IMG/VR virus record: IMGVR_UViG_3300047170_000049
Coordinates: 1-64,000 of that record
Direction: 5' to 3' (one strand)
Length of the DNA: 64,000 nucleotides
Source: a virus
Shown: positions 1 through 41,713 of the stretch, one piece after another
Position numbering within the stretch: position 1 is the first letter of the stretch
Layout: every line of letters starts with the position of its first letter
Translations under genes and position numbers: made by a program
Notes under the pieces: model-generated
Database searches by the model: none
Seen by the model: only the letters and a program-made list of their open reading frames with translations
What the model was told of the DNA's origin: nothing

Positions 1-2
1 AC

Positions 3-98
3 GATGAAGATAGATTAGGCGTTGCCGAGTTCACAACACAAGTTTTAGTTAAAATTCCAGATAAGTGTCAGCAATTGGCGAGGCTTTTATATGGATGA
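3..98 (+). CDS. 3' end of a LLYG-tail family protein (truncated by window edge)
   Basis: Manual translation DEDRLGVAEFTTQVLVKIPDKCQQLARLLYG-stop; 8-nt overlap with the ATG at 91. Confidence 0.8.
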   Translation, partial: DEDRLGVAEFTTQVLVKIPDKCQQLARLLYG

Positions 99-342
99 GC
101 CAGTAATTAATCAAGTGTACCACTGCATTCAAGATGGATGTCAAATACTCTTCAAGGTTCTTGCTGCGAATGTTAATGAAGGTAATTGGACCGTGTATGT
201 TTATCGCAATGAACTCATGTCGAAAGGCTTCATTGGTGGTGAGGTGTCAATGTATCCATATGAATGGCAACAATTGCAGGCTGGAATGAGACATATGCGA
301 CCAGAAGAAATGGTTATGATGGAGCTTCTATATGGCGAATGA
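91..342 (+). CDS. small LLYG-tail family protein
   Basis: Ends PEEMVMMELLYGE; coupled to neighbours. Confidence 0.85.
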   Translation: MDEPVINQVYHCIQDGCQILFKVLAANVNEGNWTVYVYRNELMSKGFIGGEVSMYPYEWQQLQAGMRHMRPEEMVMMELLYGE

Positions 343-574
343 TTGGTCATGGGCTGTGACAATTAAGAACATAGTGTTTATTAGCGACCCTCGTGTGAAG
401 AGTCCAATAATTCCAAGATATCAAATGGTCAAGTATCACCACAATTTAATTGGCCAAGCTGAATATAAGGGCAAGACGTTCGCATTAGGTGCCCCAGATG
501 ATTCCTTCATTCTAATGGCGTCCAGGGCTGATGCTAGGGATTTAGTCAATTTAGGGAGATTACTGTTTGAATAA
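332..574 (+). CDS. small LLYG-tail family protein
   Basis: Ends DLVNLGRLLFE; GGAG SD lies in the upstream gene's tail. Confidence 0.85.
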   Translation: MANDWSWAVTIKNIVFISDPRVKSPIIPRYQMVKYHHNLIGQAEYKGKTFALGAPDDSFILMASRADARDLVNLGRLLFE

Positions 575-803
575 GTTCATAAACGGTGATATAATAGTCC
601 AAATAGCGAATGAAGAGAATGATTATAGCTACTTCTTCCGAGTGTTGAACTTTGATGGCAAAGATTATTGGCTAAAAAGCTTCATTCACCATTATAATGG
701 TGATGAAATGAAGGCATTCCCTTCAGGGCAAAAGGGCACAGAGAACTATTGTCGTAAGGCTACGGATGAAGAAGTAGCCATGGTGGAGTTGCTTTATGAA
801 TGA
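567..803 (+). CDS. small LLYG-tail family protein, SH3/KOW-like N-terminus
   Basis: TTG start; begins KFINGDII, ends ATDEEVAMVELLYE. Confidence 0.85.
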   Translation: MNKFINGDIIVQIANEENDYSYFFRVLNFDGKDYWLKSFIHHYNGDEMKAFPSGQKGTENYCRKATDEEVAMVELLYE

Positions 804-1068
804 ATCCACTTGGACTTTAAAATATATTGGGAAGCGCATCTTGTTTAGAAAGATTAAAGAAAATATTGAAGTGTCACCTAAGAAGGTGGGTCAGAAACGC
901 ATTCTATTAGATATAGGCGATATCGTTCGTGTTATCTCTTTAACTGATTGGCGACTGGATTGCATTGTGCGTAAGAATGGTGAGTTGCATGACGTGACTC
1001 TAGATTATCATTGGACTCGTGGGCTTCGTGGTGAAGAGAAAGCCTTGGCAAAGGTGCTATATGGGTAA
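796..1068 (+). CDS. small LLYG-tail family protein
   Basis: Internal DIGDIVRV; ends GEEKALAKVLYG. Confidence 0.85.
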   Translation: MNESTWTLKYIGKRILFRKIKENIEVSPKKVGQKRILLDIGDIVRVISLTDWRLDCIVRKNGELHDVTLDYHWTRGLRGEEKALAKVLYG

Positions 1069-1291
1069 GTGGCATAAAGGCGATAAGGTTGTTTTAAGTG
1101 CTAAAGGACGAAAGTACGGTACGCTTTCTAAACACAAGGACACGATATTTGTTGTGCAAATTGAATGGTCCGATGACACCATAGATTTGACGTATGAAAA
1201 TGGAGCGCCAGCTTACGCTAACATCAAAAAAGGTTTATTCAAGCGACTTAATAAAGACATAGAACAACTGATGAGGCTCTTATATGCCTAA
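1061..1291 (+). CDS. small LLYG-tail family protein (start moved to 1061)
   Basis: Begins MGKWHKGDKVV, ends IEQLMRLLYA; 8-nt overlap start. Confidence 0.85.
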   Translation: MGKWHKGDKVVLSAKGRKYGTLSKHKDTIFVVQIEWSDDTIDLTYENGAPAYANIKKGLFKRLNKDIEQLMRLLYA

Positions 1292-1490
1292 TATTGACCA
1301 CGTTCCTAAAGTTCACTATGGCATATGGGATTTCACTCAAAGCCGTTACCGTACTATATGCCGCCATGAGCTTTACGCTAATGAGAATCTTAGAATCCAA
1401 CGCGAGTCATGGAGGCACGTCACCTGCAAGAAGTGTTTAAAAACATTGGGAAAAGAAGAATATAAGCTTTATACGTTGCTTTACGAATAA
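1284..1490 (+). CDS. LLYG-tail family protein with possible Zn-binding residues
   Basis: H, C and VTCKKC residues; ends KEEYKLYTLLYE. Confidence 0.85.
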   Translation: MPNIDHVPKVHYGIWDFTQSRYRTICRHELYANENLRIQRESWRHVTCKKCLKTLGKEEYKLYTLLYE

Positions 1491-1502
1491 GTGTGGTATT
1501 AT
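1476..1502 (+). promoter_or_regulatory. possible sigma70-type promoter inside the array
   Basis: TTGCTT-N15-TATTAT with extended TG, in the only intergenic gap of the array; spacer is short. Confidence 0.4.
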
Positions 1503-1510
1503 AAATACTT

Positions 1511-1738
1511 ATGAACGTTAAAGAGTTTCAAGATTTATTGCAAGCTAACTCGTTAGCTAGTGAGAATTGGCTAAAGCAGCAATATCAATTGATGGAAAAC
1601 GTTTCATTAATGCGCATGTTTGGTGAGACCGATGACGAGCTTCGTCGCCGTATTAATGTTGAAACACAGATGCGAACGTTAACTCCAGAACAGGCCGATA
1701 AGGTCATTGCCTTAAGGAAATTACTCTATGACTACTGA
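1511..1738 (+). CDS. LLYG-tail family protein, helical body
   Basis: GETDDELRRRI body; ends IALRKLLYDY. Confidence 0.8.
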   Translation: MNVKEFQDLLQANSLASENWLKQQYQLMENVSLMRMFGETDDELRRRINVETQMRTLTPEQADKVIALRKLLYDY

Positions 1739-1985
1739 CTTCTTTAACGGTACGATGTTCTTTGGCAGCATTCCAATGCCAAATATTAAGGGTATGGCAT
1801 CAACACTGCCTTATCCTCCTACAACCCCAGTGAAAGAGATTACATTCTTTAAAGTTGCCGAAAAGACTTTTATGTGCAGAGACAGTGCTGCACACATGAT
1901 GGCCATATTTGGCGATTACACCTATGAGGGAATTGTTCAATTAGTAGATGAAGAGCTTGAACTTTACAGGATGCTTTACGAATGA
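1728..1985 (+). CDS. small LLYG-tail family protein
   Basis: Ends DEELELYRMLYE. Confidence 0.85.
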   Translation: MTTDFFNGTMFFGSIPMPNIKGMASTLPYPPTTPVKEITFFKVAEKTFMCRDSAAHMMAIFGDYTYEGIVQLVDEELELYRMLYE

Positions 1986-2278
1986 GTGGGCCACAAGCTT
2001 ACGACGATAAGTTTGCCGTAGGCGATTACTTCGTTTACTACTCCACAAAGACCACAGAGCCTCAGTTTGTATGTGGTAAAATCACTAAGTTTGACGGTGA
2101 GCAATGGTATTTTGATTTTATTGATGCCAACGACGAATGGAAGCTCCACAACTATTTCCCAATGACTCCTGAAGTACATCGCTGGCACATACAGAGTCCA
2201 TTCTATCAAGAAGCATTCGTAGTGACCAAAGATGAAATGGAAAGATTCTCAAACCTATACAAGGTGCTCTATGCGTGA
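1982..2278 (+). CDS. LLYG-tail family protein, SH3/KOW-like N-terminus
   Basis: KFAVGDYF; ends FSNLYKVLYA. Confidence 0.85.
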   Translation: MSGPQAYDDKFAVGDYFVYYSTKTTEPQFVCGKITKFDGEQWYFDFIDANDEWKLHNYFPMTPEVHRWHIQSPFYQEAFVVTKDEMERFSNLYKVLYA

Positions 2279-2492
2279 ATGGGAAGTAGGCGACTGCTTT
2301 AAATACTTTGATGTGTTTATTTTTGTTGACCACATTGATTACGAAACTAAAGAGGTTAGGTTGACCAATGCCTTTGGTGGTTCAAGTATAGGCAAGCTTC
2401 ACGATGTTGCAGCACTTGCAGGTTACGGTCCAGAAACGTATCAGCTTTTAAGTAAAGGCGAAGCTTACCTTGCGAGGCTGTTATATGGCTAA
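2271..2492 (+). CDS. LLYG-tail family protein (start moved to 2271)
   Basis: Begins MREWEVGDCF, ends SKGEAYLARLLYG. Confidence 0.85.
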   Translation: MREWEVGDCFKYFDVFIFVDHIDYETKEVRLTNAFGGSSIGKLHDVAALAGYGPETYQLLSKGEAYLARLLYG

Positions 2493-2697
2493 GTACGCTA
2501 TAATCACTAAGCAAACGTGGGTTCACGCAGGTAGATGGATTATGCCTGGTGAAGTATTTAGAATGGTAAGATTGAAACGAGAAGGTAATAATATCCAGGG
2601 CTTAAAGATTGGCCACAACGTGTGCGCAGTTCGCAAAGAGTTTTATAAGACCTTGGATAAAAATGAGAATGAATTAGCGGAGTTACTCTATGACTGA
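2485..2697 (+). CDS. LLYG-tail family protein (start moved to 2485)
   Basis: Begins MAKYAII, ends NENELAELLYD. Confidence 0.85.
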   Translation: MAKYAIITKQTWVHAGRWIMPGEVFRMVRLKREGNNIQGLKIGHNVCAVRKEFYKTLDKNENELAELLYD

Positions 2698-3004
2698 CTT
2701 CCAGGTAGGCCAATGGGTTGTTTCTAAGAGCTTTGACGAATGGTACAACTTAGCTGCCAATATGCAGAATTTTGACCCAATAAACGCCAAAGAATGGTAT
2801 GATTTGGAATGGCCTAAAAACGTATTGAAAATAACCAAAGTAAGAGAAGCTGACCAATACGACGATGAAGGTACTGCAGCGGTATCTCCGTTCTTATATT
2901 TTGAAGGCTACGATAAGGATTGGAAGCAAGTGGGCTATTCATACCGTTGCTTTCGCCATTTAACCACGGAAGAGCAAGATTTAATGGATGTGTTGTTTGG
3001 GTAA
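2690..3004 (+). CDS. LLYG-tail family protein
   Basis: DFQVGQWVV; ends TTEEQDLMDVLFG; resembles 4169..4525. Confidence 0.85.
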   Translation: MTDFQVGQWVVSKSFDEWYNLAANMQNFDPINAKEWYDLEWPKNVLKITKVREADQYDDEGTAAVSPFLYFEGYDKDWKQVGYSYRCFRHLTTEEQDLMDVLFG

Positions 3005-3257
3005 GAAAGCGGTCCAAATGGGATTCGTTAGAATTACACAAGACTCTGAATACATCAATTCTTATAAGAAGGGGCAAATTAGTAGGCTCTACACTTCTGA
3101 AGATGATGATGGTGACCGAACCTATCACGTCATTGGTAAGTTTATTAAAATTCAAGGAAGTGGGAAGCCTTTATACCAAGGACTCCCAATACGACGCCAA
3201 GACTTTGAAGAGCTTACGGGTGACGAGTTAAAGCTAGCGGAGTTGATTTATGGTTGA
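2997..3257 (+). CDS. LLYG-tail family protein (TTG start at 2997)
   Basis: Ends TGDELKLAELIYG; 8-nt overlap start. Confidence 0.8.
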   Translation: MGKKAVQMGFVRITQDSEYINSYKKGQISRLYTSEDDDGDRTYHVIGKFIKIQGSGKPLYQGLPIRRQDFEELTGDELKLAELIYG

Positions 3258-3498
3258 GCACGTTTCATTTGGTAAATTGCCAAGCCGATATTACAAGTGC
3301 CTATTAGGTACGCATGGCTTTAACATGCTTAAAGCTTACGACTTTGACACACAAACCAATCAATACATCTTCAAGGTAATAGGAACTGGAATACGCCAGT
3401 GGCGTGATGAGTATTACACATTAGAGTCCATCTCAAGGTCAGGTTTTGATAAGATATCCTCAGAAGAGTATCACTTAGCGGAGTTGCTCTATGGGTAG
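3250..3498 (+). CDS. LLYG-tail family protein
   Basis: Ends SSEEYHLAELLYG. Confidence 0.85.
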   Translation: MVEHVSFGKLPSRYYKCLLGTHGFNMLKAYDFDTQTNQYIFKVIGTGIRQWRDEYYTLESISRSGFDKISSEEYHLAELLYG

Positions 3499-3757
3499 GA
3501 AGTTTGATATAGGTGACATTGTGACCGATGACGGTAAGTACCGCTGGGTGGTGATTACCGATAATCCATTAAAAGAAGATTTGAGCGACATTTGGGTTCT
3601 TCCTTACTCATCTAGACTAGAAACTTACGGAATGATTGGAATTTCCAATGGTAATTTTGGTGCTAAGTGGATGCACATGGCTGAGAACTTAGAACACGCA
3701 CGTTCACACCCAGGAGATAAAGCCCTTAAAGAATTAGTAGTGTTATTGTATGGATAA
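3491..3757 (+). CDS. LLYG-tail family protein
   Basis: KFDIGDIV; ends LKELVVLLYG. Confidence 0.85.
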   Translation: MGRKFDIGDIVTDDGKYRWVVITDNPLKEDLSDIWVLPYSSRLETYGMIGISNGNFGAKWMHMAENLEHARSHPGDKALKELVVLLYG

Positions 3758-3962
3758 GTACAAAGTGGGTGATATATTTAAAAGCAAGAATTCTGCCACT
3801 AAAGGGTTCTTTGTGTTGCGGTTTATTAATACACGGACGGCTAGCGTAGAGTGGGACCAGGATAGCAATGTGGGCGAAGTAATGCCTGTAAACAATTTGT
3901 TTGTTTGGTACAGGAAGCTAAATCCAGAAGAGATTATTGCCTATAACGTGCTTTATGGATGA
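3750..3962 (+). CDS. LLYG-tail family protein
   Basis: KYKVGDIF; ends PEEIIAYNVLYG. Confidence 0.85.
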   Translation: MDKYKVGDIFKSKNSATKGFFVLRFINTRTASVEWDQDSNVGEVMPVNNLFVWYRKLNPEEIIAYNVLYG

Positions 3963-4176
3963 TTTTAAAGTGGGTGATTGGATTAAACTACCACGCGGTG
4001 CTGTTGCAAAAATTCATGCGATTGAAATGCCTTACTTTTATTACACATTGGCCATGACCACTTCTTTAAATCCAAACCTAAGAAGGTCAGGTTTCAAAGA
4101 TTTATCCCATTTTTATAGGCACACGATAAAGCTCGAAGGCATTGAATTAGAAATAGCGAAGCTTCTCTATGATTGA
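3955..4176 (+). CDS. LLYG-tail family protein (start moved to 3955)
   Basis: Begins MDDFKVGDWI, ends IELEIAKLLYD. Confidence 0.85.
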   Translation: MDDFKVGDWIKLPRGAVAKIHAIEMPYFYYTLAMTTSLNPNLRRSGFKDLSHFYRHTIKLEGIELEIAKLLYD

Positions 4177-4525
4177 TTACACCGTTGGCGACTATGTTAT
4201 GCCCATTAGCTTACAAGAATGGAAAGACCTTTGCCATAAGGTTGAAGACCGCATATTTACCGATGCTGAAGAAGACAATTATTACTACGACGAATACCCT
4301 CAACACCCTGTCAAAGTTTTAAGACTTACGCCACCAAGACCCGACATAGTACCTGAAGACCCATGGCGTGAGTATTGGGAAGTTCACATTCAAATGACTA
4401 AAGAAGACGTTCATCAGGAAGATGTGTATGATGATGGCACTTACGGTTGGGACTTATTCATAGCCGATGCGTTTCGTAAGGCGACTGAAGAAGAGTTGAG
4501 ATTGTACAGGATTCTATTCCAATGA
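4169..4525 (+). CDS. LLYG-tail family protein, acidic
   Basis: DYTVGDYV; ends ATEEELRLYRILFQ. Confidence 0.85.
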   Translation: MIDYTVGDYVMPISLQEWKDLCHKVEDRIFTDAEEDNYYYDEYPQHPVKVLRLTPPRPDIVPEDPWREYWEVHIQMTKEDVHQEDVYDDGTYGWDLFIADAFRKATEEELRLYRILFQ

Positions 4526-4761
4526 AATTTCAAGAAGGTCGTTATTACAAATACACCAACGGCGACAACTACACGGCATTCTTCCAAGTTGCTGGAGATA
4601 ATACGAGGCGCTTTCGTATTAAACGATTTATGGAAATAAATCCTATTGGCATAGAATCATCAATGACTGGTCAATTCATTGAATATAATAGTCCGCTGTG
4701 GATTCACTCCATAGAAGTGGACAAGGACGAAGTAAAGCTGGCAGAGCTTTTATTCTTATGA
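4522..4761 (+). CDS. LLYG-tail family protein, last of the array
   Basis: KFQEGRYY; ends KDEVKLAELLFL. Confidence 0.85.
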   Translation: MKFQEGRYYKYTNGDNYTAFFQVAGDNTRRFRIKRFMEINPIGIESSMTGQFIEYNSPLWIHSIEVDKDEVKLAELLFL

Positions 4762-4771
4762 AAGATACTTA

Positions 4772-5233
4772 TTAAATAAGATTGAGTGACGAGCCGTTCT
4801 TCTGGGTGGATAGCTCATTTTGCATGAAAATCCCAATGAAGTTGGCCGTGAATGAAATGATGTCTTTAGCGTTCATAGACCATGAATCAGCAATGAACAT
4901 CGCTTGATAGATGGTTACGATAGAAGCACCTGATAGACGGTCAATGATTTCAATAGAAACGTATTGTTGATTGAAGTAATCACTCACACTGGATGCGTTC
5001 ATGATGTGGGCTCCATCGAGCCCACCTGAACCACGCATACGAAAGCCTGACATTGTGCCCGTGCATTGGTATGGGCCAGCTAATGCAATCTCTGCCGCAA
5101 ATGGTGAGTCAATGCCAGTGATAACCTTGGCCCCAACTGTGCGTTGATATGTGATAGACGTAGCGAAACCCACGACATTGCCGTTGATTTTAACCACTAC
5201 ACCTGCGCCTGTTTGTCTTTGTTGTAAACTCAT
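4772..5233 (-). CDS. tail-tube-like protein (tube initiator / baseplate tube paralogue)
   Basis: 153 aa beta-rich; pattern parallels the tube gene 50405..50890 (IEIIDRLSG vs IQIVDRQTG); end of baseplate operon. Confidence 0.65.
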   Translation of the reverse strand: MSLQQRQTGAGVVVKINGNVVGFATSITYQRTVGAKVITGIDSPFAAEIALAGPYQCTGTMSGFRMRGSGGLDGAHIMNASSVSDYFNQQYVSIEIIDRLSGASIVTIYQAMFIADSWSMNAKDIISFTANFIGIFMQNELSTQKNGSSLNLI

Positions 5234-5234
5234 C

Positions 5235-5492
5235 TTACTTACCTGTTAGCATGTCCAATAGATTGGACTCGTCTTCAGTTAATGCTCTAATACGACCGTC
5301 ATGTAGTCGCTTGATAAATCCCACTAGGTCTGTAGACATGGTGACCTTCACCGTCCAACTTCGCTTCATGTGGTAGAATGGGATTATCTCCACATGATTA
5401 TCTGAGTGTTGCCATACGTTTACGAGCATGTCGTATTCGGTAGACCACATGATACCAATGAACTCATTCACTGCAGTCCAGCGCTGATGCAC
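5235..5492 (-). CDS. divergent LLYG-tail family protein in the baseplate operon
   Basis: Ends LTEDESNLLDMLTGK; fills the gap between two structural genes. Confidence 0.65.
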   Translation of the reverse strand: MHQRWTAVNEFIGIMWSTEYDMLVNVWQHSDNHVEIIPFYHMKRSWTVKVTMSTDLVGFIKRLHDGRIRALTEDESNLLDMLTGK

Positions 5493-5495
5493 GGG

Positions 5496-7091
5496 TTAAC
5501 TCAAATCAGGACCGTAGTCGCCCACGATGTTGTTCATTCCAGGTCCGTTGGGATAAACGACGATGATGTTAAGAAATATGCCCGATGCCGATAAGGAGTT
5601 GATTAAGTTGATGGCTTGTTGACGGCCTTCGACTGTGCCCGTGACGTAAAATCCATAATCATCGCCATTGGTGTCAGGGATGTAGGGTTGACGTTGGAAA
5701 ATTAGAGTCATGTCAGAGCTATGGGACTTCTGAAACTTATATGATGGGTCGAGTAATATCGTACCAGATGAGGGCCTAGAGAAGTAACGAACTGGACCTT
5801 CTTGGTTTGAAGTGCCGTAATCGAATACAACGTAGTTTTCACCATCAGGGAAGATATTAGCGTTTTGCACGTTAACGATGGTGTAGACCTGACCTGCTTC
5901 AATGTTTTGGTTTAGTTGTGTGTAGGTCTCAGTAATACTGAAACCATGCTTGGGGTCGAACAAGTATGGGCCATAGTAAGGCTCAGTTGGGTCTGGAGTC
6001 ATGCCATGCAAGTGCGCTGAACCAATTAAAGTTCGCTTAACAATTTGTGTGGTAGCAGGCAAGAAACAAACAACTTCATAAGGGTTAACTTCATAGACTG
6101 AAGCGTAACGAGGCTGTTGTTGTATTACGTTGCGAATGGGCTTAAAGAACGTAACGTCTTGTGGGCTAGCTAATGTCACAGGCCCTTGAAGACTAAACGC
6201 TGGGTTTTGGATTTCAAAGAATGAATTACCAATGCTACCTGAAGTTACATCAATAATCGTATAAGAACCCTGGTTATTAGGTAAGAAGCCTGAACCAAAT
6301 AAGTTAACATAATCTCCACTCGAAATGAATTGTAAGCTAGGGTCTGGGCCACCAGTCCAAGTGAATCGAACGTTAGAGCCCACGATGCTAGAAGTAAATG
6401 TCGTGCCCACTAATTGGGTTGTAGGTCTGAGTTCAGGGAAGTCGATGTAGTTCTGGGCATTCCCACCAGTGATAGTAATGGATGACTTAGGCCCACGCGT
6501 ACCGCTAATTATTTGCACATAAGTCTTATTGACGGTCGTATCGAGGTAAGTTGTGGCTGTTAACGAGTAATCGCTATTGAATGCAGTTTGGGAAATAACG
6601 TTAGCTATCTCTAAAGCCGTGGCATTAGTGATGTCATTGAAATTGCCAGCGTTGAATGTGACAATTAATGGGACGGGGTTATTGTCCTGAAGGATTTGTA
6701 GGGTCATGCCATCTTGTAAGTGGAATGGTTCAGCTAATACGGATGTGGTATTAGCTTTGATTGCAGTCTCACCGTAGAATAGCTCTAAGATTTCAAGGAA
6801 GATGTTTGAGATGAGCTTATTGTTCGTAACGTCAACGGCAAGTTGAGCAAAGGTTGGGTCATCAATACCAACACCTGCAGGACGAGTAACGCCCATGCCT
6901 GAAGCAATACGGTCTAAGAATTGGCCTGTAGCTGTAGCTAAGAAGAGATTATCTTTGACGGCAAGGATGTTCGACTGGTTGGCATCATCGCCAGCACTAA
7001 TGGCAGCAATCACAGCATCGACGAACTTACCCTTCAATGCGGGATTGAGGAACTGACGGACTTGTTTTTCTCTTGGTGTGATATTAGCCAT
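5496..7091 (-). CDS. baseplate wedge protein (P2 gpI-like N-terminus)
   Basis: FLATATGQFLDRIASGMGVTRP motif; follows the gpJ-like gene; beta-rich. Confidence 0.7.
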   Translation of the reverse strand: MANITPREKQVRQFLNPALKGKFVDAVIAAISAGDDANQSNILAVKDNLFLATATGQFLDRIASGMGVTRPAGVGIDDPTFAQLAVDVTNNKLISNIFLEILELFYGETAIKANTTSVLAEPFHLQDGMTLQILQDNNPVPLIVTFNAGNFNDITNATALEIANVISQTAFNSDYSLTATTYLDTTVNKTYVQIISGTRGPKSSITITGGNAQNYIDFPELRPTTQLVGTTFTSSIVGSNVRFTWTGGPDPSLQFISSGDYVNLFGSGFLPNNQGSYTIIDVTSGSIGNSFFEIQNPAFSLQGPVTLASPQDVTFFKPIRNVIQQQPRYASVYEVNPYEVVCFLPATTQIVKRTLIGSAHLHGMTPDPTEPYYGPYLFDPKHGFSITETYTQLNQNIEAGQVYTIVNVQNANIFPDGENYVVFDYGTSNQEGPVRYFSRPSSGTILLDPSYKFQKSHSSDMTLIFQRQPYIPDTNGDDYGFYVTGTVEGRQQAINLINSLSASGIFLNIIVVYPNGPGMNNIVGDYGPDLS

Positions 7092-7344
7092 ATAAAATCT
7101 TGATTAACTCTGCTTCTTCGTTTTTAAGTCTGCGATAAAACAATTCAACTATGGAGTAAGCTTCTTCGGATGGTACTTCATCTTCCATGCCGACTATTGA
7201 ATAGACGTAAGCTTCACGCTGCACTTCTAGTATTTCAATAATCCACAACGGAATCATTACTTGGCGATAATCTTGAAACCCAAAGTCAAAAAAGCTTTCG
7301 TCCAGGGTTAAGTAATCGCCAACTTTGTAAAGCGGCCTACTCAT
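7084..7344 (-). CDS. LLYG-tail family protein in the baseplate operon
   Basis: LYKVGDYL; ends NEEAELIKILYG; its TAT-GGC supplies the ATG of 5496..7091. Confidence 0.85.
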   Translation of the reverse strand: MSRPLYKVGDYLTLDESFFDFGFQDYRQVMIPLWIIEILEVQREAYVYSIVGMEDEVPSEEAYSIVELFYRRLKNEEAELIKILYG

Positions 7345-13100: not shown

Positions 13101-13346
13101 ATGGTAAAGACATTCCAAGTCGGTGACTTAGTGTCATTCAAAGGTAGTACGTCTTGGGGGATAATAGTCTCAATAGACGCCTACACTAGAAATACCCACA
13201 ATGTGTGGGTTAAGCCCATATGTGGAACGCCACGTTGGATGAACCCACCTCTAGGTGGCGAATGGTCTGTGACTATGGGTGATTTAATGGATATTCCAGA
13301 GGATTCGGAATATAAGGAGTTAGGTCAGTTACTTTATGGTGATTAA
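13101..13346 (+). CDS. LLYG-tail family protein
   Basis: TFQVGDLV; ends EYKELGQLLYGD. Confidence 0.85.
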   Translation: MVKTFQVGDLVSFKGSTSWGIIVSIDAYTRNTHNVWVKPICGTPRWMNPPLGGEWSVTMGDLMDIPEDSEYKELGQLLYGD

Positions 13347-13596
13347 ACCTGGAATGCTTTTTAAAACCGTACCTGACGATAATGGGAAAGTGTATTTCTA
13401 TATTGTGGATTGGGTTGATAAAAACGATGTTGGGTATCACAACATAGGGTTAAATGTTGGGACTGCAATAGACCAAGATGAGTTTGTTGATAATTTTGAA
13501 CCTGAATGGCATGGCCATCATTGGGAAGAAGTCTCTGATGAAGAGGCTTATGTTGTTAGACTTTTATATGGAGAAGGCGATGAAAAAGATGAATAA
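13336..13596 (+). CDS. LLYG-tail family protein with short extension
   Basis: IKPGMLF; ends SDEEAYVVRLLYGEGDEKDE. Confidence 0.85.
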   Translation: MVIKPGMLFKTVPDDNGKVYFYIVDWVDKNDVGYHNIGLNVGTAIDQDEFVDNFEPEWHGHHWEEVSDEEAYVVRLLYGEGDEKDE

Positions 13597-13747
13597 AGAC
13601 TTTCAAGTGGTAGACTTGAACACCCCAGAAAATCTAGAGCAAATCGAGCGATTGGTGAAACAGATTAAAGATGCCACCAATAGGCATTACGCTGTTAACA
13701 CACCATGCGGGTTCTTAATTGTGCCAGAAGGTGAGACCGTACAATGA
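13568..13747 (+). CDS. hypothetical protein (start 13568-13589)
   Basis: In-frame ATG inside the upstream LLYG codons; ATGA overlap with the next gene. Confidence 0.6.
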   Translation: MEKAMKKMNKDFQVVDLNTPENLEQIERLVKQIKDATNRHYAVNTPCGFLIVPEGETVQ

Positions 13748-13974
13748 AGATTTATGCCAAGGTGAGATTCCCATTCAATGCTCAGTCCAAAGAGAATCTC
13801 AATGACATTGTGGACTGGAAAATCGAAGAAGGCTCAATAGTGGAGATACTGCCTGATGGCGATAGCATCTTCCGAGCCATTGAATTTAAGAAACGGACTT
13901 TCTACATACCGCTGGTCAATATGTATGTGATGAGCGATGCAGAGTCCAAACTAGCAGAGGTATTGTTTGGCTAG
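13744..13974 (+). CDS. LLYG-tail family protein
   Basis: IEEGSIVEI; ends SDAESKLAEVLFG. Confidence 0.85.
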   Translation: MKIYAKVRFPFNAQSKENLNDIVDWKIEEGSIVEILPDGDSIFRAIEFKKRTFYIPLVNMYVMSDAESKLAEVLFG

Positions 13975-27738: not shown

Positions 27739-28044
27739 ATGACTGCCGATGAAGTTCTCACAGTAGAAAAAGGTAATTGGGTTGTCCCAATGGTGACTTT
27801 AAAATTTAACAACTTCAACATGCTTACCATGCACAAAGCATATTGCGTCGAAGGTGTTGAACGCAGTGAGTACCCACTTAACTCTAGAGACCCACAATCT
27901 GCGATTCTAACTGATACTTATATTTACATCAAAAACGACGAAGGTCACATTGCCCCATTCAATTTAGAAGGTGGCGTTCAATGGCTTCTTTTAAAAACAG
28001 AAGAAGAAGCGCATCTCTACGAAACACTGTTCTCTAAGGAATAA
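27739..28044 (+). CDS. LLYG-tail family protein
   Basis: VEKGNWVV; ends TEEEAHLYETLFSKE. Confidence 0.75.
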   Translation: MTADEVLTVEKGNWVVPMVTLKFNNFNMLTMHKAYCVEGVERSEYPLNSRDPQSAILTDTYIYIKNDEGHIAPFNLEGGVQWLLLKTEEEAHLYETLFSKE

Positions 28045-29661: not shown

Positions 29662-30141
29662 ATGAACATTATTTTCTTAGATTTTGACGGAGTTTTGAAT
29701 TCTGCCCAGTCCAGTGTGTTTTGGAGTAAACAAGGCCACCCATATGGTCTAGTTAATAACAAGGTCCGTGGCTATAACCGCTTTTGCCCTATAGCGATGT
29801 CCAACTTGAATTACATCTTGGAGGCGTCACCTGAGACCAACGTTGTGATTTCATCTTCATGGCGCTTAGGTAATACGTTTGAAGAGTTAAAAATCATACT
29901 CACAGAGAATGGCTTTGCTCACCCTGACAGGCTTATAGGGGTCACCCCACACTTGCCAGGTAAGATTCGTGGCAATGAGATTGACCAGTGGTTCACAGAT
30001 ACAGACCTAGACGTTAGTAAGTACGTCATCATTGATGATGATTCAGACATGGGCGATATGACCAAATACTTAGTGCAGACCCATTACGGGGTTGGACTAT
30101 CCTGGGTTGAAATTGAGAAAGTGTTGGAATTACTAAAATGA
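29662..30141 (+). CDS. HAD-superfamily phosphatase (Swiss-army-knife RNA-repair type)
   Basis: FLDFDGVLN, VISSSWR, RGNEI, YVIIDD. Confidence 0.9.
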   Translation: MNIIFLDFDGVLNSAQSSVFWSKQGHPYGLVNNKVRGYNRFCPIAMSNLNYILEASPETNVVISSSWRLGNTFEELKIILTENGFAHPDRLIGVTPHLPGKIRGNEIDQWFTDTDLDVSKYVIIDDDSDMGDMTKYLVQTHYGVGLSWVEIEKVLELLK

Positions 30142-30356
30142 TTGAAGCATACACTGGGTACGAATTGTCACAATATGAAGACGGTAAACCCCGTGTGTGC
30201 AACTTCCAAGCTGGCATGTTTTGGTGCCAGCATAGGACATTATTTGAAGTATTCAGACCTGAGCATGGTGGCATGGGTTGGATATGCGAGAACTGTAAAC
30301 ATTTTCACCCCAGTAAAGAAGCTTATTTAAAGAATCTTTTATTTAATAAGGAGTAG
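30138..30356 (+). CDS. Zn-binding hypothetical protein, possible divergent LLYG-tail member
   Basis: C, CQH and CENC residues; ends KEAYLKNLLFNKE. Confidence 0.65.
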   Translation: MIEAYTGYELSQYEDGKPRVCNFQAGMFWCQHRTLFEVFRPEHGGMGWICENCKHFHPSKEAYLKNLLFNKE

Positions 30357-40087: not shown

Positions 40088-41713
40088 ATGAAACAGCCTT
40101 ACGACGTGTTTACGTCAAAATTCGCGCAGGATATTTACCTTCAAAAATACTCTAAAGATGGTGTCGAGACATGGGCGGACACCGCCAAGCGAGTTACTGA
40201 TGCAGTATGCTCACAACTGCTTGACGCCAAATCCCGTGAAAAGATTTACCACATCATTCTAGAGAGAAAATTCATTCCAGGTGGAAGATACCTTTATTCT
40301 GCAGGTAGGGAATTCCATCAAGTAAATAATTGCTTCTTATTCCGTGCAGAAGACTCACGCGAATCATGGGCTGATACCATGCAAAAAATAACGGCAAGCT
40401 TAATGACTGGTGGAGGGATTGGGGTTGAATACTCTAAGCTCCGTGCTGAAGGCGAAATAATTCGTCGTACTGGTGGAACGTCCACTGGCCCTATTGCCTT
40501 GATGAACATGGTCAATGAAGCTGGACGATACATAATGCAAGGTGGTCAGCGTCGTAGTGCTATATGGGCTGGTCTTAATTGGTCACACAAAGACGTTTCA
40601 AAATTCATTCACTTAAAAGACTACTCCGAGGCACTAAAAGGTGCGAAACTTGCTGATTTCAACTTTCCACTTCCAATGGAGTTAACCAATATATCTGTAG
40701 TCTACGACACTGAATTTTTCATTGCCGTAGAAAATGAAAACCACCCCAAGCATCAAGAAGCCCTCAAAGTCTGGTTGGATAACTGCCGACAAGCATTTTC
40801 AAGTGCTGAACCTGGTATGAGCTTTAACTTCACTAAAGATAATGAAAACCTACGCAATGCCTGCACGGAAGTAGTCTCAGAAGAGGATAGCGATAAGTGT
40901 AATCTTGGCACCATATGGATGAACCGTATTAAAGACAAAAAAGAATTAGCTGAAGTAACCAAGTATGCTACTTTATTTCTTTTGTGCGGTGGGATTTACT
41001 CAGACATTCCCACCCAACGTATTAGAGAAATTGGCGTTAAGAATAACCGTATTGGTTTAGGGTTGGGTGGAATCCACGAATGGCTTATGTCTCGTGGGTT
41101 AGAGTATGAAGTGAACCCTGAACTACACAAATGGCTTTCTATTTACGAGCAAGAATCTGACTCAGCGGCTTTCGTAGGCTCTAAACAACTTGGAGTTGCC
41201 GTCCCTAAAGGCGTGCGTGCAATTGCACCCACTGGCACTATTGGAATCATTGCTGAGACCACAACGGGCATTGAGCCTTTATTTTGCAAAGCATACAAGC
41301 GTCGTTACTTTAAAGAAGGTAAATGGATGTTCCAGTATGTAGTGGACGGTGCCGTGAAGCGTCTTCTGGACCAAGGCGTGAAAATTGAGCACATAAAAGA
41401 CTCATATGACTTAACTTTTAAGCAAAGGGTGAAATTCCAAGCCGATGTTCAAAACTATGTGGACATGGCAATTTCTTCTACTTGCAACATGCCTAAGTGG
41501 GGCTCAGAAGAAAATAGTGAGTCTAATTATGAAAAGAACGCTAATACACTACTTAAGTACGCGAAACGACTTAGGGGTTTTACCGTTTACCCAGATGAAT
41601 CTCGTGGAGGCCAGCCTTTAACGCGAGTTGACCTACAGGAAGCTCTTAAGGACGAAGGTAGGGTATTTGAAGAGACTGTAAACGAATGTATTAATGGCGT
41701 GTGTGGAATTTAA
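40088..41713 (+). CDS. nrdJ: ribonucleotide reductase, probably class II (B12-dependent)
   Basis: FIPGGR, NNCF, GGGIG, RRSA, NACTE, CNLG, APTGT, GIEP and C-terminal CxxxxC; no beta-subunit gene adjacent. Confidence 0.85.
   Translation: MKQPYDVFTSKFAQDIYLQKYSKDGVETWADTAKRVTDAVCSQLLDAKSREKIYHIILERKFIPGGRYLYSAGREFHQVNNCFLFRAEDSRESWADTMQKITASLMTGGGIGVEYSKLRAEGEIIRRTGGTSTGPIALMNMVNEAGRYIMQGGQRRSAIWAGLNWSHKDVSKFIHLKDYSEALKGAKLADFNFPLPMELTNISVVYDTEFFIAVENENHPKHQEALKVWLDNCRQAFSSAEPGMSFNFTKDNENLRNACTEVVSEEDSDKCNLGTIWMNRIKDKKELAEVTKYATLFLLCGGIYSDIPTQRIREIGVKNNRIGLGLGGIHEWLMSRGLEYEVNPELHKWLSIYEQESDSAAFVGSKQLGVAVPKGVRAIAPTGTIGIIAETTTGIEPLFCKAYKRRYFKEGKWMFQYVVDGAVKRLLDQGVKIEHIKDSYDLTFKQRVKFQADVQNYVDMAISSTCNMPKWGSEENSESNYEKNANTLLKYAKRLRGFTVYPDESRGGQPLTRVDLQEALKDEGRVFEETVNECINGVCGI

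Follow-up and report, generated by a model that had tools for sequence, protein, structure and literature searches.

The first 64,000 nucleotides (nt) of the viral record IMGVR_UViG_3300047170_000049, hereafter the window, hold 20 consecutive small genes (the tag genes) whose products end in a common short peptide tail, and at most of the joints between them the codons of the tail also contain the start codon of the next gene and often its Shine–Dalgarno (SD) sequence. We consider it quite probable that translational coupling with an overlap of 8 nt (class -8) has been written into a conserved tail helix and that SD-aided termination–reinitiation proceeds down a chain of accessory genes. No new mechanism is called for, as this would be a tidy form of ordinary translational coupling. 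The joints provide a clean natural case of two codes carried by identical bases, with 26 such joints in this genome and 26 in a relative. What has been conserved is a peptide helix, which allows the two codes to be distinguished at each position, and the joints show which helix positions serve the protein and which serve the ribosome.

Joint geometry and start codons

At the joints, the upstream gene ends in ...[LV][LI]-Tyr-Gxx-stop, and the last two bases of TAT together with the following G make an ATG. The resulting overlap, ATG-NN-TRR, is 8 nt long, and one extra residue extends it to 11 nt. The initial annotation had listed 16 overlaps, and all were present on direct reading of the bases: 14 of 8 nt, with ATG or TTG as the first codon (91, 567, 796, 1061, 1284, 2271, 2485, 2690, 2997, 3250, 3491, 3750, 3955, and 4169), and two of 11 nt (332 and 1728). 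Two more joints of the window's array are of class -4. The same annotation had proposed that residues just upstream supply the SD, which agrees with the finding of GGAG or GAGG exactly 7 nt ahead of the start at nine of the window's array joints.

For counts across the whole 159-kb genome, a tag gene was defined as a small gene with the tail L-x-x-[LIVMT]-[LIVMF]-[YF] followed by zero to three residues. Of the 47 genes so defined, 26 have a start-bearing tail (ATG at 22, TTG at four), with the SD mostly 7 nt upstream. In every one of the 22 TAT-G tails, the frame beginning at the ATG stays open for 58 codons or more, compared to 30% of untagged gene ends at the same position (p ~3e-12), and in all three Tyr tails ending TAC-G the frame is closed after 6 to 12 codons. 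Overlaps of class -8, -11, or -14 occur after 20 of 45 tag genes, compared to 13 of the 198 others (Fisher p 4e-9). At the junctions of those other genes, classes -4 (32) and -1 (20) prevail and class -8 is rare (6/198).

These features suggest the following mechanism. The array would be a polycistronic run of tiny accessory genes, most of whose products end in one amphipathic helix. The exposed residue three positions before the aromatic one (position -3) is Glu, Lys, or Arg, encoded as GAG, AAG, or AGG and often preceded by Ala as GCG, which yields GGAG, GAGG, or AAGG. Seven bases past this SD, the last two bases of TAT and the G of the final codon form the ATG, and a stop within codons 2–3 of the next gene produces ATG-NN-TRR with its 8-nt overlap. 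On termination, the P site of the ribosome would be occupied by the last sense codon, which lies 2 nt past the ATG, while the SD, 7 nt upstream of the ATG, would stay within reach of the small subunit, and a 2-nt shift would suffice for restart. Restart would pass translation from gene to gene down the chain. The arrangement of the genes suggests that translation is truly coupled across the joints. More remotely, the nascent tail helix might act inside the ribosome at termination and favor restart.

Termination–reinitiation at short overlaps has been described by Huber et al. in 2019 (PMC6728339) and 2023 (PMC10666635). The -8 ATGNNTGA overlap is third in frequency after -4 and -1 and lies within the termination–reinitiation window (PMC10666635). 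Like such pairs, the array genes are co-directional, start inside the upstream gene in the -8 ATGNNTGA class, and have their SD in the upstream coding sequence; the stop-to-start distances mostly fall within the range of -8 to about +6 nt, and the upstream gene holds a usable start with an SD at working distance. Compared to the usual pairs, the array differs in several ways. First, class -8 is the rule here, rather than -4 or -1. Second, 20-odd joints follow one another. Third, the overlap bases are supplied by one peptide motif, in which the demands of the peptide fall on the hydrophobic face and those of the RNA on the exposed and terminal residues.

Three independent lines agree in suggesting that the proposed starts are the true ones. 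First, of 16 array proteins that were aligned, 12 open with the motif M-x-[KD]-[FWY]-x-x-G-D when read from the proposed ATG, with Gly-Asp as residues 7–8. Second, in the related array described below the orthologues start at the equivalent codon and their first residues are alike, as in MANDWSWAVTIK / MAKDWSWAVTIK and MPNIDHVPKVHY / MANIDHTPKVHY. Third, two TTG cases are secure: TTG 567 is the only start codon ahead of the conserved N-terminal KFxxGD motif, and the orthologue of the gene at TTG 2997 also starts at a TTG in a Phe codon and lacks an ATG at the alternative position. The initial annotation had named four TTG starts; the other two, at 13967 and 39777, are possible but unsupported. 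At 13 of the window's 19 array joints, the proposed start is the first start codon past an in-frame stop 3–42 nt upstream.

Two constraints on the same bases

Codon choice in the tails was compared with background shares taken from gene bodies. TAT makes up 47–48% (47.6%) of Tyr codons there and 50% before a G, GAG 28% of Glu codons and 34% before Leu, GCG 9–14% of Ala codons and 6.6% before Glu, Lys, or Arg, and AGG 9–11% of Arg codons. In the tails, Tyr is TAT in 24 of 28 cases (p 3e-5) and in 22 of 25 where a G comes next (p 8e-5). At position -3 of the 26 start-bearing tails, Glu is GAG in 8/8, Lys is AAG in 7/8, and Arg is AGG or AGA in 4/4; Ala at -4 is GCG in 7 of 10 start-bearing tails compared to 1 of 9 tails without a start. 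When peptides were held fixed and codons redrawn from genome usage 5000 times, an SD 4-mer at working distance was expected at 1.1 coupled joints and is found at 11 of 26, a number that none of the 5000 resamplings reached; any SD 3-mer is found at 19 of 26 against 8.2 expected. The wobble base of Tyr and the SD codons are thus under an extra constraint, and the RNA is selected beyond the peptide.

The RNA need also picks among equivalent residues, namely Tyr over Phe, Gly/Ala/Glu/Asp at the last position, and Glu/Lys/Arg at -3. Start-bearing tails have Tyr and Phe in a ratio of 22:4 compared to 6:15 in startless tails (p 2e-4). The residue past the aromatic one is always Gly, Ala, Glu, or Asp in start-bearing tails and nearly anything in startless ones, and Glu, Lys, or Arg stands at -3 in 20 of 26 start-bearing but 9 of 21 startless tails.

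The pattern replicates in a related array. The relative is a 39-kb assembled contig (L024) from a public run, whose tube-like protein adjoining the array is 85% identical to ours; L024:9000-19727 is the complete homologous block, lying between corresponding flanking genes and holding 39 genes in 10.7 kb. The samples from which related contigs were obtained are SRR29078101, SRR29078250, and SRR21686402. Among its 35 joints, 19 overlap by 8 nt, four by 11 nt, and one by 14 nt. Its tail Tyr is TAT in 25 of 25 cases versus 53% in gene bodies, and it has 17 SD 3-mers versus 8.3 expected and five 4-mers versus 1.2.

Fifteen orthologous tail pairs of the two genomes were compared codon by codon. Leu at -1 is kept in 14 of 15 pairs and its codon differs in 9, and Leu at -2 is kept in 12 of 15 and its codon differs in 8, whereas among the 14 pairs with a shared aromatic residue its codon is unchanged in 12. 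The codon at -3 is identical in eight pairs and changed synonymously in one. The two synonymous aromatic changes are TAT in the relative versus TAC in ours, both at joints that no longer start there in our genome. This conservation of the aromatic codon, set against the changing Leu codons, points more clearly than any other result to a second constraint on the bases concerned.

These comparisons bear directly on the view that the overlaps are a by-product of packing, in which Tyr-Gly ends contain ATG by chance, compaction makes the overlaps, and no selection acts on the RNA. Class -8 is indeed the third commonest prokaryotic overlap (PMC10666635), and the genome is 42% G+C. But TAT amounts to 48–50% of Tyr codons even before G; GAG, GCG, and AGG are minority codons that dominate at the SD positions of coupled tails only; the aromatic wobble base is conserved between orthologues and the Leu wobble bases are not; and the pattern recurs in the relative. 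We regard the packing explanation as highly improbable.

The peptide is selected as well. The tail motif is kept in 21 tails that hold no start, and its two Leu positions use all six Leu codons; since the codons vary freely while the residue is kept, the hydrophobic residues are under purifying selection with their codons free to change synonymously. The tail is a short amphipathic helix, with a capping-box-like L-[TS]-x-E-E, a hydrophobic face L..LL[YF], and mostly a final Gly. In the converse explanation, the tail has been kept solely for its role in initiating translation, with no function for the peptide itself. The choice of Tyr over Phe, the last residue, and the residue at -3 all track the RNA need, and the aromatic residue is gone from some uncoupled tails (..LLE*, ..LLK*, ..TLQ*), as that explanation would have it. 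It is nevertheless very unlikely, as the 21 startless tails keep L..LL[YF], Leu residues with six codons are conserved through frequent synonymous change between orthologues, and the upstream capping box [TS]xEE is without an RNA role. The synonymous-codon tests in two genomes and the orthologue comparison thus bear out the proposal of the initial annotation that selection acts on both peptide and RNA.

That proposal had included an internal control, namely that genes ending at 1490, 1985, 4525, and 4761, where the aromatic codon does not serve as a start, use TAC or TTC. For Tyr, the control is borne out: every TAT-G tail has a downstream frame, and the three closed cases are TAC. It fails for Phe, which is TTT in 10 of 15 startless tails. 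The four genes are themselves special cases. At joint 1985, our TAC GAA TGA (-4) corresponds to TAT GAG TAG (-8) in the relative with an identical start, ATGAGT; the start codon is unchanged, so the shift is only in its place relative to the upstream frame. Joints 1985 and 4525 keep AGGA 10 nt before ATGA and so are presumably still coupled. At joint 1490, the relative's tail TAT GAC TAA starts an 87-codon gene that is absent from ours, and our 20-nt spacer 1491-1510 has a 10-nt exact match, GTGGTATTAT, to codons 9–12 of that gene, which indicates a deletion scar. Gene 4761 is the last of the block. The TAC tails at 1445-1493 and 1940-1988 are 73% identical over 49 nt (..GCTTTACGAATRAGTG), closer than most tail pairs, and are thus not independent cases.

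Several observations weigh against coupling through the tail. Class -8 overlaps reinitiate less efficiently than -4 or -1 overlaps (PMC10666635). Of the 16 array joints with a start in the aromatic codon, five offer either no usable SD (2997, 3750, 3955, and 4169) or AAGG alone, and for 5 of the 19 array starts another possible start codon lies upstream in frame. Owing to the kinship of the two genomes, the replication is not fully independent, although synonymous sites between them look saturated. Furthermore, the structural model of one subfamily suggests that in some members the helix may simply be part of the fold.

With respect to fold, the gene bodies do not align with one another (three pairs at E < 1e-3 among the 47 tag proteins), and the tail may stand on differing bodies: at least one is predicted by eye to be all-helical, and one subfamily, of three genes in each phage, is modeled as a small barrel ending in the tail helix (predicted local distance difference test score, pLDDT, 78.6). 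The structural neighbors of the barrel subfamily were weak chromo-barrel/Tudor-like matches (E 0.14 or worse), and an Atlas search for the subfamily gave SH3-like leads only. The model of gene 3491 (pLDDT 52) was too poor to be used. Pfam and PHROGs searches with the array proteins gave nothing usable. A profile search of 1.84 billion representative proteins with the barrel subfamily found no member beyond the two phages; it matched four proteins of 103, 117, 111, and 109 residues, the lengths of four of the six query sequences (lengths, not sequences, were compared). A protein search with gene 4169-4525 returned only itself. Two possible likenesses of the tail were dropped, one to the clamp-binding C-terminus of T4 and one to the first helix of LuxR/excisionase helix-turn-helix domains; the large replication proteins of this genome are without the tail.

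Gain and loss of genes at the joints

The initial annotation had described each gene as a chainable cassette that could be inserted or shuffled. In a phmmer comparison of the two blocks, 21 orthologous pairs with 35–72% identity occur in identical order; a further 13 genes are confined to our array and 18 to that of the relative, a few of which may be over-diverged orthologues. No reordering of shared genes was seen between the two arrays (21/21 collinear). Thus, in the one relative compared, the cassette idea finds support for the insertion and deletion of whole genes and none for shuffling.

At least four whole-gene differences are clean, and all of them have -8 or -11 joints. Gene 3750-3962 is ours only, has -8 joints on both sides, and is weakly similar to its neighbor 3955-4176 (z 4.0); a 34-nt direct repeat (76%) at 3749-3782 and 3954-3987 spans both of its joints. 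Gene 1061-1291 is likewise ours only, with clean joints on both sides. In the relative, a single additional gene lies between the orthologues of 3955-4176 and 4169-4525, and an extra block of five genes, R27-R31, between the orthologues of 2997-3257 and 3250-3498. Other losses are untidy, leaving the scar 1491-1510 in ours and gaps of 170–209 nt in the relative (L024:12067-12266, 13159-13369, and 13632-13803). The first of these gaps matches the 3′ end of our gene 158692-158910 at 78% identity, which marks it as a decayed gene. The clean cases are in keeping with the gain and loss of whole genes at joints that stay intact, and similar joints may favor such in-register gain or loss. With a single comparator, recombination at the joint and selection for clean products are not separable.

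These differences raise the question of whether the joint is mainly a recombination connector, kept as homology for in-register exchange, with its translation signals secondary. In addition to the collinear array with its many unshared genes and the clean -8 joints flanking gene 3750-3962, gene 1061-1291, and the relative's R35 and R27-R31, several repeat features speak for a connector. Nearly all direct repeats of the array lie at joints, the best family being 28 nt at 68–86% identity, and joints at non-allelic positions of the two phages are 79% identical over 43 nt. Of the relative's tails, 17 of 29 use CTC for the Leu that precedes Tyr, versus 9% in its gene bodies and 5 of 25 tails in ours, and CTCTATG recurs 16 times in the relative's array versus six in ours; this excess looks like lineage-specific homogenization of joints, beyond what translation alone would bring. 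The unchanged gene order, the shortness of exact joint-to-joint matches (9–14 nt, the longest shared words being about 10–14 nt), and the untidy losses argue the other way, and selection alone would retain clean events, which come from one comparator. A connector as the main purpose is therefore a minority possibility, if a serious one.

A related and still more tentative reading treats the joint as the translational counterpart of the promoter-early stem-loop (PeSL) cassettes of T4-type phages, described by Arbiol et al. in 2010 (PMC2839356; PMC4122927). The peptide constraint would keep about 25–45 nt alike (the tail helix and M-x-K-F-x-x-G-D), and unequal recombination would add, remove, or duplicate genes in frame, all of them translated at once. 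If so, the CTC homogenization in the relative would be the footprint of exchange between joints. Like PeSLs, the joints are short repeated elements that border small accessory genes in a hypervariable region, with insertions, deletions, and replacements between related phages at them; at least four of the whole-gene differences between the two arrays have clean joints, and some others are untidy. A PeSL is an intergenic element with a strong promoter and a terminator hairpin, whereas the array joints have no intergenic DNA, promoter, or hairpin and act on translation. The intergenic sigma-70-like promoter and terminator stem-loop are accordingly missing from these overlapping joints, and the block holds six sigma-70-like sites compared to 15.2 expected from shuffled sequence, which is a depletion. 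A looser likeness exists to the start-associated sequences (SAS) of Cluster K mycobacteriophages, described by Pope et al. in 2011 (PMC3203893), in which a repeated element with an SD core lies a few bases before many non-structural genes, sometimes over the upstream stop. The SAS is a nearly invariant 13-bp word, GGGATAGGAGCCC, 3–7 bp upstream of the start, whereas the array joints are degenerate as DNA, with 28-nt repeats at 68–86% identity, and are fixed only in the SD core, TATG, and the stop.

The sameness of the joints might also be inherited, the array having grown by tandem duplication of gene plus joint, an idea that would complement coupling through the tail. Weak paralogy points in this direction (3750-3962 versus 3955-4176, as above; R30 and R32 both match 3250-3498), as does the three-gene subfamily in each phage. 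Gene bodies are otherwise unalignable, and the joint also serves unrelated downstream genes (the tail fibre gene at 7091 and the gene at 13336). Since the bodies can no longer be aligned and the joints keep their signals, continuing selection would be required in any case, and growth by duplication is a doubtful explanation.

Two further candidates for exchange were dropped: O29 as a chimera of the relative's two paralogues, for which the alignment gave no decision, and the occurrence of one tail, LAKVLYG, on two unrelated bodies (796-1068 and R16) as a breakpoint, as the AAGGTG type recurs and convergence is possible.

For annotation, start codons lying 8 nt within the upstream gene, TTG among them, should be anticipated by gene finders. 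For phage evolution, the array offers a translation-level example beside the connectors known from transcription, where accessory genes are gained and lost.

Genomic setting and individual joints

The record is 159,288 bp long, and the window is its first 64 kb. Our own gene calling, which used codon-usage scoring and a term for SD and start codon, gave 245 genes covering 95% of the genome; long genes have AGGAG-type ribosome-binding sites about 7 nt ahead of ATG. A 78-codon open frame, 159150..98, bridges both record ends, which indicates that the record is circular or circularly permuted and that the array is continuous there. This frame is the first of the window's 20 consecutive tag genes. 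The initial annotation had placed the beginning of the array at base 80; this gene and a block beginning at 153878 in fact precede it. The whole plus-strand block comprises about 34 small genes (153878..159288/1..4761) and is bordered by a divergent gap at 153713-153878 and, after 4761, by a convergent tail-tube-like gene. No convincing plus-strand terminator was seen in the block, including at the joints. Together with the few promoter-like sites, this makes one long polycistronic message the simplest reading of how the block is probably transcribed.

The genome encodes a portal protein as well as a class I ribonucleotide reductase, a DnaE-type polymerase III alpha subunit, and a GroEL-like chaperonin (regions 100464-102278 and 110893-114279 of the genome and 40088-41713 of the window). 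Myxococcus phage Mx1, the sole named relative (35–42% protein identity in tail-fibre and portal searches), likewise encodes a reductase, a polymerase, and a chaperonin of these kinds. None of the approximately 80 small genes in the whole Mx1 genome has a tail of this kind. No tag genes were found in a 108-kb IMG/VR relative (portal 55% identical, 67% complete), where a search with a tail-alignment profile was also negative. The baseplate J-like protein is common to a large uncultured clade (269 proteins, E <= 1e-10). Relatives found by this protein (46–64% identity) have other small genes at the array's place; one of them, L019 (64%), has one tag-like tail, and the contigs at about 50% baseplate identity lack the tail. 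A near-identity search of the phage collection with bases 1-6000 gave no match, and a degenerate DNA pattern for LAELLYG-stop had two matches in IMG/VR that were judged to be chance.

The individual joints of the window's array, all on the plus strand, fall into a few kinds. An 8-nt overlap with GAGG or GGAG is seen at 75..98 (LARLLYG*; GAGG 7 nt before ATG 91), 551..574 (LGRLLFE*; GGAG 8 nt before TTG 567, from TTT-G), 780..803 (MVELLYE*; GGAG, ATG 796), 1268..1291 (LMRLLYA*; GAGG, ATG 1284), 2469..2492 (LARLLYG*; GCG-AGG giving GAGG, ATG 2485), 2674..2697 (LAELLYD*; GCG-GAG giving GGAG, ATG 2690), 3234..3257 (LAELIYG*; GGAG, ATG 3250; the site of the relative's five extra genes), and 3475..3498 (LAELLYG*; GGAG, ATG 3491). 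At 1045..1068 (LAKVLYG*; ATG 1061, starting the gene without a counterpart in the relative) and 2255..2278 (LYKVLYA*; ATG 2271), the 8-nt overlap is accompanied by AAGGTG. The two 11-nt overlaps lie at 316..342 (MELLYGE*; GGAG 7 nt before ATG 332), where the orthologous joint of the relative overlaps by 8 nt, and at 1712..1738 (LRKLLYDY*; AAGGA, ATG 1728).

The remaining 8-nt overlaps are at 2981..3004 (LMDVLFG*; TTG 2997 from TTT-G, a weak SD, and ATG 2988 and ATG 3018 as alternatives), 3734..3757 (LVVLLYG*; ATG 3750) and 3939..3962 (AYNVLYG*; ATG 3955), which are the left and right edges of gene 3750-3962 and are both without an SD, and 4153..4176 (IAKLLYD*; ATG 4169). The uncoupled tail at 1467..1510 (LYTLLYE*, with TAC) is followed by the 20-nt spacer that is a gene remnant. 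ATGA overlaps with AGGA 10 nt upstream are found at 1962..1985 (LYRMLYE*, with TAC; overlap at 1982) and 4502..4525 (LYRILFQ*, with TTC; overlap at 4522). The tail of the block's last gene, 4738..4761 (LAELLFL*, with TTC), has no downstream gene on its strand.

At many joints between 316 and 4176 of the window, TA closes the first Leu or Ile codon of the tail, with G or A as the next base (TTA-GCG, CTA-GCG, ATA-GCG, TTA-AGG). Such codons place TAG or TAA in the downstream frame 12 nt ahead of the ATG, which may be a chance result of TTA usage.

The same kind of joint is also seen outside the array. On the minus strand at 7084..7107, LIKILYG* (TAT GGC TAA) holds ATG 7091 of a 531-residue tail-fibre-like gene (5496-7091), and on the plus strand at 13320..13346, LGQLLYGD* holds ATG 13336 of an untagged 86-residue gene in an 11-nt overlap. 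In L019, an 8-nt overlap likewise joins the fibre gene to the gene upstream (L019:14145-14152), and that upstream gene is untagged and ends in Asn-Gly (AAT GGC TGA), which suggests that the overlapped start predates the tag at the fibre site.

Some tails depart from the common form. Two plus-strand tails with three extra residues, at 27739-28044 (..LFSKE*) and 30138-30356 (..LLFNKE*), encode Lys-Glu as AAGGAA or AAGGAG, with the next ATG at +1 and +4 past the stop; these represent a second way for a tail end to supply the next ribosome-binding site. Tail-like C-termini without the aromatic residue are ..NLLDMLTGK, ..ALWQTLQ, ..ALWKILNE, and ..KLRKLLRG, located at 5235-5471 of the window (minus strand) and at 158411-158710, 158692-158910, and 131339-131677 of the genome. 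In ..KILNE, the aromatic position is Asn (AAT), and AAT-G yields the next ATG with an 8-nt overlap. In both phages, the gene after ..ARLLYS* (157122-157388; ..ARLLFS* in the relative, L024:11067-11318) is without a start at the usual place. Its apparent start lies 23–29 nt upstream (TTG in ours, ATG in the relative), and its KFKxGD motif is positioned as if an ATG two codons earlier were expected.

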